Positions 22,301 to 26,659 of a DNA stretch of 64,000 nt are shown here, piece after piece. The translations under genes and the position numbers were made by a program. Below the pieces are notes generated by a model. That model searched no databases and was not told the DNA's origin. It saw only the letters and a list, made by a program, of their open reading frames with translations. Position 1 is the stretch's first letter. Each line of letters begins with the position of its first letter. This DNA is from Escherichia virus KFS-EC3, in sequence record MZ065353.1, one strand, 5' to 3'.

Positions 22301-22918
22301 TTATGCCTTACTAAATTTGCCTTTAGAATCTCTTTTCATGAGACGACCTTTAATAAATCCGTCGGGAATAATACCGTCTGGTTGTATTAATTTATTTATT
22401 GCGCCATTATTGACCCAAAAAGTTCCTGTTGTAGTCGGTTTGACTTTACATCCTTTTCTGGACTTTCTATTAGGATGAACCATCCCTTTTACAAATCCTT
22501 CTGGAACAAGTTCTCCAGGCTTAATAAAAATATTTTTAGTTCCATTAGTGTAACAAGTTGTACCTAATACCGTGCCCGGTGAGTTTTCAAATCTCTTAGC
22601 GGAAGATTCTTTCATCTTTGCTATAACCTCTGTAGTCATAACAATTCCACCAATTCCACCAGGTTTCATATTATAATAATTTTTGCTTTTTATCAGTTCA
22701 GGAGTTATAATTTCTTCTTCATACATGTACGCTTCTTCGGAAGTTTTAAACTCTTTTAGTATTTTTCTAGAGAAATTGTTTTCACCATATTTCTTTATAG
22801 CCTGCTGAATTGCCTTACCGGAACCAAGGTAGCCATCATTCAGGTCGTCAGTAGAGTGCTTTCCTATATACTTTTTACCATTTATTAGATTTGTTGTTTC
22901 GTATACAAAGTGGTACAT
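22301..22918 (-). CDS. GIY-YIG homing endonuclease (segD-like by position)
   Basis: 205 aa; N-terminal FVY...YIGKH GIY-YIG module. Confidence 0.75.
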   Translation of the reverse strand: MYHFVYETTNLINGKKYIGKHSTDDLNDGYLGSGKAIQQAIKKYGENNFSRKILKEFKTSEEAYMYEEEIITPELIKSKNYYNMKPGGIGGIVMTTEVIAKMKESSAKRFENSPGTVLGTTCYTNGTKNIFIKPGELVPEGFVKGMVHPNRKSRKGCKVKPTTTGTFWVNNGAINKLIQPDGIIPDGFIKGRLMKRDSKGKFSKA

Positions 22919-22967: not shown

Positions 22968-23648
22968 ATGATAGATAAAGATTATATTGCAGAGCTGAAG
23001 GCTCTTGATGATAATAAAGAAGCTAAAGCTAAATTAGCTGAATATGCTGAACAGTTTGGTATAAAGGTCAAAAAGAATAAATCTTTTGATAATATCGTTA
23101 ATGATATTGAAGAAGCCCTCCAGAAGCTCGCTAGTGAACCTATGCCAGAGACTGATGGGTTATCTATTAAAGACTTAATTGATGCTGCTGATGCTGCAGA
23201 CGGATTAAAATATGACGATGAAGAAGTCAATCCAGAGGCAGCACTTCTGATTGATTCTCCGGTTAAATCTGACATTAAAATTGAAGTAGTAGAAACGGAT
23301 AAAATTCCTGAAAATACCGATGTTTTGATTGAAGATACTCCTTTTGTTGAAGAAAAATTCGAGCAGGCTGTAGCTGAGATTATTGAATCTGAAAAGCCGT
23401 CTGTATTTACTCTTCCGGAAAACTTTAGTCCGAATCTTCAGCTGATTGGAAAAAATCCAGGATTCTGCACCGTTCCTTGGTGGATTTACCAGTGGATTGC
23501 TGAAACTCCGGATTGGAAATCTCACCCAACTAGTTTTGAACACGCGTCAGCACACCAAACTTTATTTAGCTTAATTTACTACATTAATCGTGACGGATCA
23601 GTTCTAATTCGTGAAACACGTAATTCTTCTTTCGTAACATTAAAATAA
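22968..23648 (+). CDS. acidic protein at the position of T4 inh (prohead protease inhibitor), candidate
   Basis: 226 aa ORF immediately upstream of hoc; synteny only. Confidence 0.45.
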   Translation: MIDKDYIAELKALDDNKEAKAKLAEYAEQFGIKVKKNKSFDNIVNDIEEALQKLASEPMPETDGLSIKDLIDAADAADGLKYDDEEVNPEAALLIDSPVKSDIKIEVVETDKIPENTDVLIEDTPFVEEKFEQAVAEIIESEKPSVFTLPENFSPNLQLIGKNPGFCTVPWWIYQWIAETPDWKSHPTSFEHASAHQTLFSLIYYINRDGSVLIRETRNSSFVTLK

Positions 23649-23657
23649 GGATAACTT

Positions 23658-25076
23658 ATGGCTTTTACAGTTGATATAACTCCTAAAACACCTACTGGAG
23701 TTATAGATCAGACTCAGCAGTTTACTGCTACACCCAGTGGTCAAACTGGAGATGGACCTATTACATATGCTTGGACTGTAGATGATGTTCCACAAGATGG
23801 AGCTGAAGCAACTTTTAGTTATGTACTAAAAGGACCTGCCGGTCAAAAGACTATTAAAGTAGTTGCAACAAACACAGTTCCAGATACTGATGCTGAAACG
23901 GCAGAAGCTACTACAACTATCACAGTTCAAAATAAGACACAGACAACTACCTTAGCTGTAACTCCTAATAGTCCTCCAGAAGGAGTAATCGGAACAGCTG
24001 TTGAATTTACTGCTGCCTTAGCTTCACAGCCATCGGGCGCATCTGCTACGTATCAATGGTACGTAGACGGTTCTCCTGTGGGCGAAGCAACTTCTGCTAC
24101 ATTCAATTACACTCCTTCCACAAGCGGAGTTAAAACAATTAAGTGTGTAGCTCAAGTAACCGCGACAGATTATGATGCAAAGGAAGTTACTTCTAATGAA
24201 GTGTCACTGACTGTTAATAAAAAGACGCAGACAACTACCTTGACAGTAACTCCTGATAGTCCTCCAGCAGGAGTTATTGGAACCCCAGTTCAATTTACTG
24301 CTACCTTGGCTTCTCAACCTGATGGAGCGTCTGCCACGTATCAGTGGTATGTAGATGATTCACAAGTTGGTGGAGAAACTAACTCTACATTTAACTATAC
24401 TCCAACTACAAGTGGAGTAAAAAGAATTAAATGCGTAGCTCAAGTAACAGCGACAGATTACGATACAAAAGAAGTTACTTCTAATGAAGTGTCATTGACA
24501 GTTAATAAGAAAACAATGAATCCACAGGTTACATTGACTCCTCCTTCTATTAATGTTCAGCAAGATGCTTCGGCTACATTTACTGCTAACGTTACGGATG
24601 CTCCGGAAGAAGCGCAAATTACTTATTCATGGAAGAAAGATTCTTCTCCTGTAGAAGGGTCAACTAATGTATACACTGTTGATACATCATCTATTGGAAG
24701 TCAAACTATTGAAGTTACTGCAACTATTACTGCAACTGATTACGATAGCAAAACTATTACAGCAGAAGGTCAAGTTCAGGTAACTGATAAAGTTGCTCCA
24801 GAACCAGAAGGTGAACTACCTTATGTTCATCCTCTTCCACATCGTACTTCAGCTTACATCTGGTGCGGATGGTGGGTTATGGATGAAATCCAAAAAATGA
24901 CTGAAGAAGGTAAAGATTGGAAAACTGAAGATCCAGATAGTAAATACTACCTGCATCGTTACACTCTTCAGAAGATGATGAAAGACTATCCAGAAGTTGA
25001 TGTTCAAGAATCGCGTAATGGATACATCATTCATAAAACTGCTTTAGAAACTGGTATTATCTATACCTATCCATAA
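23658..25076 (+). CDS. hoc: Hoc-like outer capsid decoration protein with tandem Ig-like domains
   Basis: 472 aa; repeated roughly 97-aa Ig-like modules. Confidence 0.8.
   Translation: MAFTVDITPKTPTGVIDQTQQFTATPSGQTGDGPITYAWTVDDVPQDGAEATFSYVLKGPAGQKTIKVVATNTVPDTDAETAEATTTITVQNKTQTTTLAVTPNSPPEGVIGTAVEFTAALASQPSGASATYQWYVDGSPVGEATSATFNYTPSTSGVKTIKCVAQVTATDYDAKEVTSNEVSLTVNKKTQTTTLTVTPDSPPAGVIGTPVQFTATLASQPDGASATYQWYVDDSQVGGETNSTFNYTPTTSGVKRIKCVAQVTATDYDTKEVTSNEVSLTVNKKTMNPQVTLTPPSINVQQDASATFTANVTDAPEEAQITYSWKKDSSPVEGSTNVYTVDTSSIGSQTIEVTATITATDYDSKTITAEGQVQVTDKVAPEPEGELPYVHPLPHRTSAYIWCGWWVMDEIQKMTEEGKDWKTEDPDSKYYLHRYTLQKMMKDYPEVDVQESRNGYIIHKTALETGIIYTYP
23931..24513 (+). repeat. in-frame tandem duplication of an Ig-domain coding unit within hoc
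   Basis: two consecutive units of about 290 bp, near-identical by eye. Confidence 0.75.
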
Positions 25077-25080
25077 TCAT

Positions 25081-25096
25081 AGGGGCTTCGGCCCCT
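25081..25096 (+). terminator. UUCG tetraloop terminator hairpin after hoc
   Basis: AGGGGC-TTCG-GCCCCT then T-rich. Confidence 0.55.
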
Positions 25097-25164: not shown

Positions 25165-25380
25165 ATGAGATTGATTATGAGAACTGAGGTTGTGGTGTTT
25201 ACACTCCATGAGTCTGGAAAGTCATTCATTGAAATTGCTCGTGAATTGAACTTACAGGCAAAGGAAGTGGCTGTATTATGGGCTCGAGCTATGACTGCTA
25301 AGAATAAATTTGAGACTCGAGAAAAAGTTGTCTATAGAAAAAGACATATTAATAAAAAGGTGAAAAATGGAACAGTATGA
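25165..25380 (+). CDS. hypothetical small protein, possible HTH
   Basis: 71 aa ORF. Confidence 0.4.
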   Translation: MRLIMRTEVVVFTLHESGKSFIEIARELNLQAKEVAVLWARAMTAKNKFETREKVVYRKRHINKKVKNGTV

Positions 25381-25645
25381 TCTTTATGAAAATGAATCTT
25401 TTGCTAATCGATTACGCGAAAAAGCACTTAAAAGTAAACAGTTTAAGCTAGAGTGTTTTATTAAAGATTTTTCGGAACTTGCTAATAAAGCAGCTGAACA
25501 AGGTAAAACATATTTTAGTTATTATTGTACTGCTCGCGATAAATTGATTACTGAAGAAATTGGTGATTGGCTGAGAAAAGAAGGATTTAGCTTTAAAGTC
25601 AATAGTGATCAGCGTGATGGTGATTGGTTAGAAATTACATTTTGA
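25367..25645 (+). CDS. hypothetical protein
   Basis: 92 aa ORF. Confidence 0.45.
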   Translation: MEQYDLYENESFANRLREKALKSKQFKLECFIKDFSELANKAAEQGKTYFSYYCTARDKLITEEIGDWLRKEGFSFKVNSDQRDGDWLEITF

Positions 25646-25654
25646 GGATTAATT

Positions 25655-26659
25655 ATGTTTAAAAAGTATAGCAGTCTTGAAAATCATTACAACTCTAAAT
25701 TTATTGAAAAACTTTACAGTTTAGGATTGACTGGCGGCGAATGGGTAGCTCGTGAAAAGATTCATGGCACAAATTTCTCACTGATTATTGAACGCGATAA
25801 AGCAACTTGTGCTAAACGTACTGGACCGATTCTTCCTGCTGAAGATTTCTTTGGGTATGAAATTATTCTAAAGAATTATGCTGATTCCATTAAAGCAGTA
25901 CAAGATATTATGGAAACTTCAGCGGTTGTATCTTATCAAGTCTTTGGCGAATTCGCTGGACCTGGCATTCAGAAGAATGTCGATTATGGCGATAAAGATT
26001 TTTATGTATTTGACATTATTGTTACTACCGAAAGTGGTGATGTGACTTATGTCGATGATTATATGATGGAATCATTCTGTAATACATTTAAATTTAAAAT
26101 GGCTCCACTTTTAGGTCGCGGTAAATTTGAAGAGCTTATTAAATTGCCAAACGATTTAGATTCTGTCGTTCAAGATTATAATTTTACAGTAGACCATGCT
26201 GGATTAGTTGATGCAAATAAATGCGTTTGGAATGCCGAAGCAAAAGGCGAAGTATTTACCGCTGAAGGTTATGTATTGAAACCTTGCTATCCTTCTTGGA
26301 TGCCTAATGGCAATCGCGTAGCGATTAAATGCAAGAACTCTAAATTTAGTGAAAAGAAAAAGTCTGATAAGCCTATTAAAGCTAAAGTTGAACTGTCAGA
26401 AGCTGATAACAAATTGGTGGGAATTTTAGCTTGTTACGTTACACTGAACCGAGTAAATAACGTTATTTCTAAAATTGGCGAAATTGGTCCGAAGGATTTT
26501 GGAAAGGTGATGGGACTAACTGTTCAAGATATTTTGGAAGAAACTTCTCGTGAAGGTATTACTCTAACTCAAGCGGATAATCCTTCTTTGATTAAAAAGG
26601 AATTAGTTAAAATGGTACAAGATGTACTTCGTCCAGCTTGGATTGAATTGGTAAGTTAA
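25655..26659 (+). CDS. rnlB: RNA ligase 2
   Basis: 334 aa as T4 Rnl2; nucleotidyltransferase motif I KIHGTN. Confidence 0.85.

Follow-up and report, generated by a model that had tools for sequence, protein, structure and literature searches.

The hoc gene of Escherichia virus KFS-EC3 encodes a 472 amino acid (aa) long Hoc (highly immunogenic outer capsid protein) with five domains. It most probably represents an ordinary, widespread allele, which goes back to an ancient domain duplication whose copies were reshuffled among co-infecting T-even phages. The gene is located at 23658..25076 on the plus strand of the 64,000 nucleotide (nt) stretch analysed here (sequence record MZ065353.1; "the window"), to which all positions refer. 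According to this explanation, the central Ig/PKD-like domain, corresponding to T4 Hoc domain 2, would have been duplicated at an ancient stage that precedes the split of the hoc alleles sampled from Tequatrovirus and Mosigvirus, and would have given rise to three or more paralogous types of unit (A, B and C). The hoc genes of today would contain between 0 and 4 such units of 96 aa, and their order would invariably be A, B, C. Copy number and unit combination would be altered by unequal, in-register homologous recombination between the hoc alleles of co-infecting phages, presumably at the conserved ends of the units and at the TV(N/Q/K)(N/K)K linker found at each domain boundary. As to polarity, a multi-unit ancestor with subsequent losses and a single-unit ancestor with subsequent gains are both possible.

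Identity and domain anatomy of the five-domain Hoc

The product of 23658-25076 is identified as Hoc by its PHROG families, its match to T4 Hoc and its gene position. The open reading frame comprises 472 codons plus stop, and its translation matches the PHROG 'Hoc-like head decoration' (E 4.6e-141) and T4 Hoc (PDB chain 5vf3_Z, 376 aa; E 9e-219) in an alignment that extends to the final residue. The best phmmer stretch pairs residues 189-472 of the product with residues 93-376 of T4 Hoc, and the C-terminal Hoc-like family phrog_21694 is detected over aa 408-472 (E 1.3e-41). As in the T4 annotation, hoc is placed between inh and homologues of 24.3, 24.2 and rnlB. The upstream neighbour inh (22968-23648) encodes 226 aa, which is the length of T4 inh, and the two downstream reading frames at 25165-25380 and 25367-25645 show the layout of T4 24.3 and 24.2. 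They are followed by a frame of 334 aa (25655-26659) at the rnlB position, and the matching frame in the relative L018 contains RNA_ligase Pfam domains. A GC-rich hairpin followed by a T run at 25081..25096 on the plus strand, 5 nt past the hoc stop codon, is likely an intrinsic terminator, and a terminator is annotated at the equivalent place after hoc in the SA20RB record. The window as a whole is a Tequatrovirus segment, for which the best 20-kb match is phage SH-1 (97.8%).

Five domains can be delineated on the plus strand. Ig-like domain 1 (D1; 23658..23921, aa 1-88) is predicted to be all-beta with a pLDDT of 83-93 and shares 38-44% aa identity with both repeat units. It is followed by repeat unit 1, a type A Ig/PKD-like domain (23922..24209, aa 89-184), and by repeat unit 2, a type B Ig/PKD-like domain (24210..24497, aa 185-280) that contains the best Pfam PKD stretch (195-253). 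Ig-like domain 3 in T4 numbering (D3; 24498..24785, aa 281-376) matches Pfam Ig_3/I-set at 289-373 and is 43-45% identical to the units at the aa level, and the capsid-binding domain at the C-terminus (D4; 24786..25073, aa 377-472) corresponds to phrog_21694. [quoted passage not shown] The Pfam PKD family scores 38.5 bits for the entire protein, compared with a cut-off of 23.5 bits; PKD_3 and BiPBP_C also exceed their cut-offs, while Ig_2, Ig_3 and I-set stay slightly below. The AF2 model (mean pLDDT 84.5) contains four all-beta (beta-sandwich) domains with values of mostly at least 90 per 10-residue block and a C-terminal domain of low confidence (pLDDT 39-67). The best PDB matches found by Foldseek for this model are strings of four Ig domains, as in Dscam, Sidekick and ICAM-5.

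T4 Hoc is present as one copy at the centre of each gp23* hexamer, corresponding to 155 copies per capsid; it is dispensable for infection and binds mucin glycans (PMC10385173, PMC11853027). The residues by which T4 Hoc contacts gp23 are Y293, H295, H299, R300, Y304, W306, W309, W310, D313 and ESRNG355-359 (PMC10385173). All of them are found at +96 in the 472-aa Hoc, and with the exception of Y400 and W402 they are invariant or nearly so in Hoc alignment A1; across 15 relatives, dN of D4 is approximately 0. The 472-aa Hoc should hence bind the gp23 hexamers of the capsid through its conserved C-terminal domain, like T4 Hoc, and should project four Ig-like domains instead of three. By inference from the 180 Å of the T4 Hoc fibre, the fibre would be about one Ig domain longer, i.e. 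roughly +40 Å. For PhiPNJ-9, an S-L-T motif in domain 2 (S183-L184-T185) was reported as a MUC2 contact (PMC11853027). This motif occurs twice in the 472-aa Hoc, at 183-185 and at 279-281, and judged by its sequence the protein has the surface of domain 2, S-L-T motif included, in duplicate.

Similarity and age of the two central units

Two repeat finders agree on a tandem repeat with a period of 288 nt at 23922-24515, comprising 2.1 copies without indels (TRF score 773). Both units are 288 nt long, keep the frame and encode a single Ig/PKD-like module of 96 aa each. They are identical at 230 of 288 nt (79.9%) and at 78 of 96 aa (81%). A nucleotide match of this extent has a binomial P of about 1e-81 against chance, and the identity of both units to D1 and D3 is 38-45% at the aa level. 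Because the identity between the units is far above chance and far above that to D1 and D3, units 1 and 2 are a true duplicate pair.

These data agree in several respects with the preliminary description of this DNA, which had recognised the gene as hoc with one Ig-like domain more than T4 Hoc and its two central modules as tandem paralogues. It had placed the duplicate at 23931-24513, which is the same interval within the arbitrary phase of the repeat, and its motif strings, the product length of 472 aa and the 376 aa given for T4 Hoc are correct; the difference between the two proteins is exactly one 96-aa unit. The self-comparison that it had named as a possible refutation leaves the claim of a duplication standing, with the units being 81% identical to each other at the aa level versus 38-45% to D1 and D3. 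What does not hold is the wording 'near-identical', considering 79.9% nt identity and 58 nt differences. The longest exact in-register stretch is only 24 nt long, GAAGTTACTTCTAATGAAGTGTCA, at 24183..24206 on the plus strand, with its second copy at 24471-24494.

Third codon positions account for 38 of the 58 differences. Nei-Gojobori estimates for unit 1 versus unit 2 are dS 0.82 and dN 0.108 (dN/dS 0.13), and both units are under purifying selection, from which it follows that both would be expressed, folded domains. The dS is not evenly distributed along the unit, but amounts to 1.58 in codons 28-77 versus 0.45 in the pooled ends (Fisher p 0.01); the lower value fits with occasional homogenisation or exchange at the unit ends.

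As a reference for the time scale, the hoc domains were compared with those of 15 relatives, among them T4, SA20RB, UGKSEcP1, HP3 and slur14. Orthologous D1, D3 and D4 differ by a dS of 0.05-0.44, and the divergence between units 1 and 2 is two to ten times that between hoc alleles. Each unit has closer counterparts in other phages: unit 1 shares 97% nt identity with the first unit of SA20RB and 100% aa identity with the sole unit of P0076, a 376-aa Hoc, and unit 2 shares 93% nt identity with unit 2 of SA20RB and 90% with T4 domain 2. In a neighbour-joining tree built with 28 DNA units of 15 genomes, unit 1 falls into clade A (100% bootstrap) together with all first-position units and the single unit of ST0. 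Clade C (100% bootstrap) comprises the units at the last position, from genes with three or four units and from some with two. Type B, in which unit 2 groups with T4 D2 and second-position units, is a poorly supported grade (46% bootstrap). Units 1 and 2 are thereby separated by a split with 100% bootstrap, and units group according to type and position and in no case according to genome. Other phages contain several units that are A/B mosaics, and these blur the tree. At 25 sites diagnostic for A versus B, unit 1 and unit 2 each have the state of their own type at 24; therefore, neither of them is a mosaic. Among 40 multi-unit Hocs, units within one protein are never more than 83% identical at the aa level, and no recent duplication is visible in this sample. 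By these comparisons, the unit pair is old and not recent.

The proposal of a recent event made in the preliminary description, which would place the tandem duplication in situ in this phage or among its direct forebears, was considered in this light. In favour of such an event, the copies follow each other perfectly in tandem, the frame is kept, indels are absent, and the units are each other's closest paralogues within the gene. This reading is nevertheless contradicted by the 80% nt identity and the dS of 0.82, when positional counterparts elsewhere are 93-97% identical and orthologous domains differ by a dS of 0.05-0.44, and by the placement of the units in different clades (100% bootstrap). 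It is also contradicted by the occurrence of the architecture in about 38% of the sampled records and by the lack of any multi-unit Hoc with units above 83% aa identity. A recent origin is thus highly improbable and was rejected on the basis of dS, unit tree and distribution.

The second unit could also be a mis-assembled repeat copy, since assemblers can be confused by repeats, and an unverified record, KNP5, has a run of N across the same part of hoc. However, 58 of 288 positions differ between the units, so reads map unambiguously, and the frame is intact. In addition, more than 20 independent GenBank assemblies in a 60-record sample share the 1419-nt architecture, as does the IMG/VR contig L019. 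With units that are 20% diverged and an architecture common to many assemblies, an assembly artefact was likewise rejected, and its probability is next to nil.

Unit number, unit order and probable recombination between hoc genes

The five-domain gene is widely distributed. A megablast search with hoc matched 654 phage records, and in an evenly spaced sample of 60 of these, the gene is 1419 nt long in 23 (about 38%) and 1131 nt long in 29; a few are shorter or partly matched. The architecture was counted from the span per record and not from BLAST coverage, in which overlapping pieces of a four-domain match merge to 100%. The 120 best protein clusters comprise Hocs of 376 aa (79), 472 aa (29) and 567-570 aa (9), and one each of 361, 372 and 468 aa; some of the 472-aa clusters (90% identity) hold 58-167 members. 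Both the 60 records and the 120 clusters were picked by similarity to the 472-aa Hoc, and the frequencies are rough. The exact hoc allele of the window was not found, the best DNA match among the 654 records being 96.5% and the best protein cluster being 96% identical. A scan of IMG/VR yielded 21 loci, which are too few for frequencies; they include contig L019 with the same five-domain architecture.

The retrieved hoc genes differ in steps of exactly 288 nt. Hoc of phage F2 (280 aa) lacks D2-type units altogether and has D1 joined directly to D3, T4 Hoc (376 aa) contains one unit of type B, the Hoc of the window (472 aa) contains two, A-B, that of UGKSEcP1 and T4_ev151 (568 aa) three, A-B-C, and that of slur14 (664 aa) four, A-B-B'-C. 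In ST0 and HP3, the unit compositions are A and A-C, respectively, and AV111 has a 282-aa Hoc with a D2/D3 fusion. The comparison of Hoc domain number in relatives that the preliminary description had suggested thus yields a series of 280, 376, 472, 568 and 664 aa. Its proposal that the repeat takes part in unequal recombination is supported by the existence of relatives with 0, 1, 2, 3 or 4 units, which would result from such events. Typing of the units in the 120 best clusters gave single A in 67, single B in 14, A-B in 25, A-C in 3, B-C in 1, A-B-C in 5 and A-B-B in 3, and no array out of the order A, B, C was found among them.

The sites at which units are exchanged can be narrowed down by sequence comparison. 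The linker TV(N/Q/K)(N/K)K is present at all three boundaries, after the best conserved part of the unit. Its coding motif ACNGTTNAAAANAAGAC (TV-Q/N-N/K-K-T) is located at 23922..23939 on the plus strand, at the boundary between D1 and unit 1, and again at 24210-24227 and 24498-24515. In F2, the deletion from D1 to D3 lies precisely at this linker motif, which is likely a recombination joint. A second short homology is provided by a 24-mer encoding TATDYD, which is located on the plus strand at 24159..24182 in unit 1, 24447-24470 in unit 2 and 24729-24752 in D3. In the AV111 Hoc (282 aa), the switch from D2 to D3 occurs exactly at TATDYD, and this homology appears to have been used for the D2/D3 fusion in the 282-aa Hoc variants.

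Comparison with the closest relatives reveals mosaic exchanges. SH-1 is the closest genome to the window over 20 kb and yet encodes a 376-aa Hoc, the single unit of which is an A/B mosaic with 89% identity to unit 1 and 84% to unit 2. In L018 (P0076), D1 and unit 1 are 97-98% identical to the window, but D3 only 92%. A clean gain or loss of one unit relative to these two was not found, and mosaic exchanges were seen instead. Hoc architecture hence appears uncoupled from the flanking sequence. The linker and TATDYD joints, the homogenised unit ends, the A/B mosaics and this uncoupling all point to unequal and allelic homologous recombination between the hoc genes of co-infecting T-even phages. 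The recombination machinery of T4 is very active.

The same exchange could in principle account for the origin of the tandem itself. A and B may have begun as diverged alleles of a single domain 2 in different T-even lineages, and two four-domain hoc genes would then have recombined once in a mixed infection, by an unequal crossover at the linker, to make the tandem; the divergence between A and B would in this case date the lineages and not the tandem arrangement. Four-domain Hocs with A only (67 clusters) and with B only (14 clusters) exist, the linker joint has demonstrably been used in the F2 deletion, hoc alleles move between genome backgrounds, and Tequatrovirus-like hoc is present in genomes labelled Mosigvirus. 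Against such an origin, the flanking domains D1, D3 and D4 lack a correspondingly deep divide between A-only and B-only genes (dS 0.05-0.44), even if such a divide may have been lost by recombination, and extra events are needed for type C and for the ordered A-B-C and A-B-B'-C arrays. Even if it applied, the A-B arrangement would be old, because it is found in hundreds of genomes and because the A-B(-C) arrays of different phages differ by dS values of up to about 0.4-0.5 (maximum 0.48 for A, 0.42 for B). We consider an allelic origin unlikely and favour the ancient duplication with subsequent reshuffling. The claim of a 'recent' event can in any case not be maintained: the dS of 0.82 exceeds that of orthologous domains (0.05-0.44), closer orthologues of both units exist in other phages, the units are separated by a split with 100% bootstrap, and roughly 40% of the matching GenBank phage records contain the five-domain gene.

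On a more tentative note, the centre of hoc might constitute a combinatorial domain-cassette locus, in which A, B and C are gained, lost and recombined in a fixed order, and in which morphs with 0-4 units are kept by selection because adhesion to different mucosal glycans or the evasion of anti-Hoc antibodies would depend on fibre length and unit type. We regard this as possible but doubtful; if it were true, the A-B array would be a functional morph and not a neutral length variant.

Relation to known Hoc proteins and significance

Variation in the number of Ig-like domains of Hoc has already been published, and hundreds of GenBank genomes have an annotated five-domain gene. Among 650 Hoc homologues, Fokine et al. 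(2023) described strings of between 1 and 10 Ig-like domains and a 'great variability' that extends to close relatives of T4 (PMC10385173), with one domain in PG7 and ten in the Hoc of Serratia phage Muldoon. These homologues resemble the Hoc of the window in combining a conserved C-terminal anchor with a variable number of Ig domains; the survey spans distant phages and does not contain the ordered A/B/C series. A three-domain Hoc variant has been characterised experimentally (Fu et al. 2024, PMC11853027), and a further study compares two 376-aa Hocs only and has no bearing on domain number (PMC13390416). A literature search on five-domain Tequatrovirus Hoc and hoc domain duplication retrieved only the general statements on Ig number (PMC10385173) and the three-domain variant (PMC11853027), and no paper on an ordered A/B/C series within Tequatrovirus was found in this search. 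The ordered series therefore adds a minor descriptive element and does not amount to a system of a new kind.

Among the closest known proteins are the 472-aa Hocs of other Tequatroviruses, for example vB_EcoM_SA20RB, Pu-Krd-SF5/6/7, VEc74 and IME340. Their architecture and A-B order are identical to those in the window, and their genes are 92-96.5% identical at the nt level, with point differences only; five-domain relatives are annotated as 'Hoc-like head decoration' or 'PKD domain protein'. The genes of F2 (280 aa), AV111 and PhiPNJ-9 (282-283 aa, three domains), UGKSEcP1/T4_ev151 and slur14 represent the same gene with the same 96-aa unit, but differ from the A-B state of the window in unit number or combination. 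Tandem duplication of a Hoc domain is also seen in a sister Hoc lineage, represented by the IMG/VR contig L024. Its Hoc (471 aa, about 48% identical to that of the window) contains four Ig domains as a result of a tandem duplication with copies that are 79% identical at the aa level. In this case, a D3-type and not a D2-type domain was duplicated, which indicates a separate, independent event.

The extra domain of the Hoc studied here is an inherited, common allele, and neither a fresh mutation nor a sign of stock instability. Hoc serves as a display scaffold in the engineering of T4 vaccines and vectors, and the 'bacteriophage adherence to mucus' model rests on it. Variation in domain number has to be taken into account when adhesion residues are mapped by T4 numbering, as in the case of S183-L184-T185 of PhiPNJ-9. 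That natural T4-like phages vary by whole Ig domains also matters for comparing the mucosal retention of therapeutic phages.

Genomic surroundings and possible exchange of hoc

The region upstream of hoc in the window contains a 205-aa GIY-YIG homing-endonuclease open reading frame (22301-22918, minus strand) between uvsW and inh, which has the same position and the same length as segE of T4. Its homologue in the related genome L018 is assigned to the Pfam family SegE_GIY-YIG. With such a mobile element located 740 bp upstream of hoc, the activity of the endonuclease could favour gene conversion in this region. Downstream of hoc, the gene 24.3 homologue (DUF2774; 25165-25380) is called as a 71-aa protein in the window, in contrast to 56 aa in the T4 annotation and 67 aa in both L018 and the five-domain relative SA20RB; these length differences probably reflect only the choice of start codon.

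The hoc genes of four genomes labelled as Mosigvirus (L010, L013, L016 and L004, i.e., FL18, mar005P1, ST0 and AV111) are about 90% identical at the nucleotide level to Tequatrovirus hoc, and other T-even contigs encode a separate Hoc type starting with MAYTV, with approx. 50% amino acid identity. The presence of such similar genes alongside a distinct Hoc type suggests either inter-genus exchange of hoc or unreliable genus labels.

Short deletions and interrupted hoc records

Domain 3 of the window Hoc contains a 12-nt tandem repeat of 2.3 copies (24715-24743), which encodes the motif VTAT-ITAT. Exactly four amino acids are missing at this site in the Hoc protein clusters P0109 (372 aa) and P0030 (468 aa), and a 15-aa deletion in P0069 (361 aa) has its end point at the same motif. 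These deletions look like products of slippage or of short-homology deletion.

Four GenBank records, MZ501066 (FriedrichMiescher), PQ511148 (NHEP10), PP418986 (UPWr_E2) and MZ234025 (172859UKE1), display either a two-CDS hoc annotation, labelled "Hoc part 1 / part 2" or "x2", or a match that covers 1418 nt rather than 1419 nt. These records represent either frameshifted hoc pseudogenes in some isolates or sequencing errors; a loss of hoc would be plausible, because Hoc is dispensable. In the unverified record of Shigella phage KNP5 (L006, KX452698), a run of N replaces the entire central part of hoc, and the assembly was evidently broken by the repeat array.

Longer Hoc proteins and gain of Ig-like domains

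Phage T4_ev151 (L011, LR597660) is named as a T4 derivative and encodes a 568-aa Hoc with the D2-type Ig units A-B-C, whereas T4 Hoc contains only the B unit. With this composition, simple duplication from T4 cannot yield the T4_ev151 hoc, and T4_ev151 is therefore a different or recombinant phage. An open reading frame of 1107 aa in L032 (IMG/VR 2706796453_000001) contains the Hoc match, and its C-terminal end carries the conserved Hoc capsid-binding motifs. This suggests a putative decoration protein of much greater length, similar to the example of Serratia phage Muldoon (PMC10385173).

The 471-aa Hoc of L024 (IMG/VR 2974546015_000001), a member of a sister lineage, contains a tandemly duplicated D3-type domain with copies that are 79% identical in amino acid sequence, and a similar domain pair (57%) is present in L023. 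The D3-type duplication is thus the sister lineage's own, and the gain of Ig-like domains in hoc is therefore a recurrent process.
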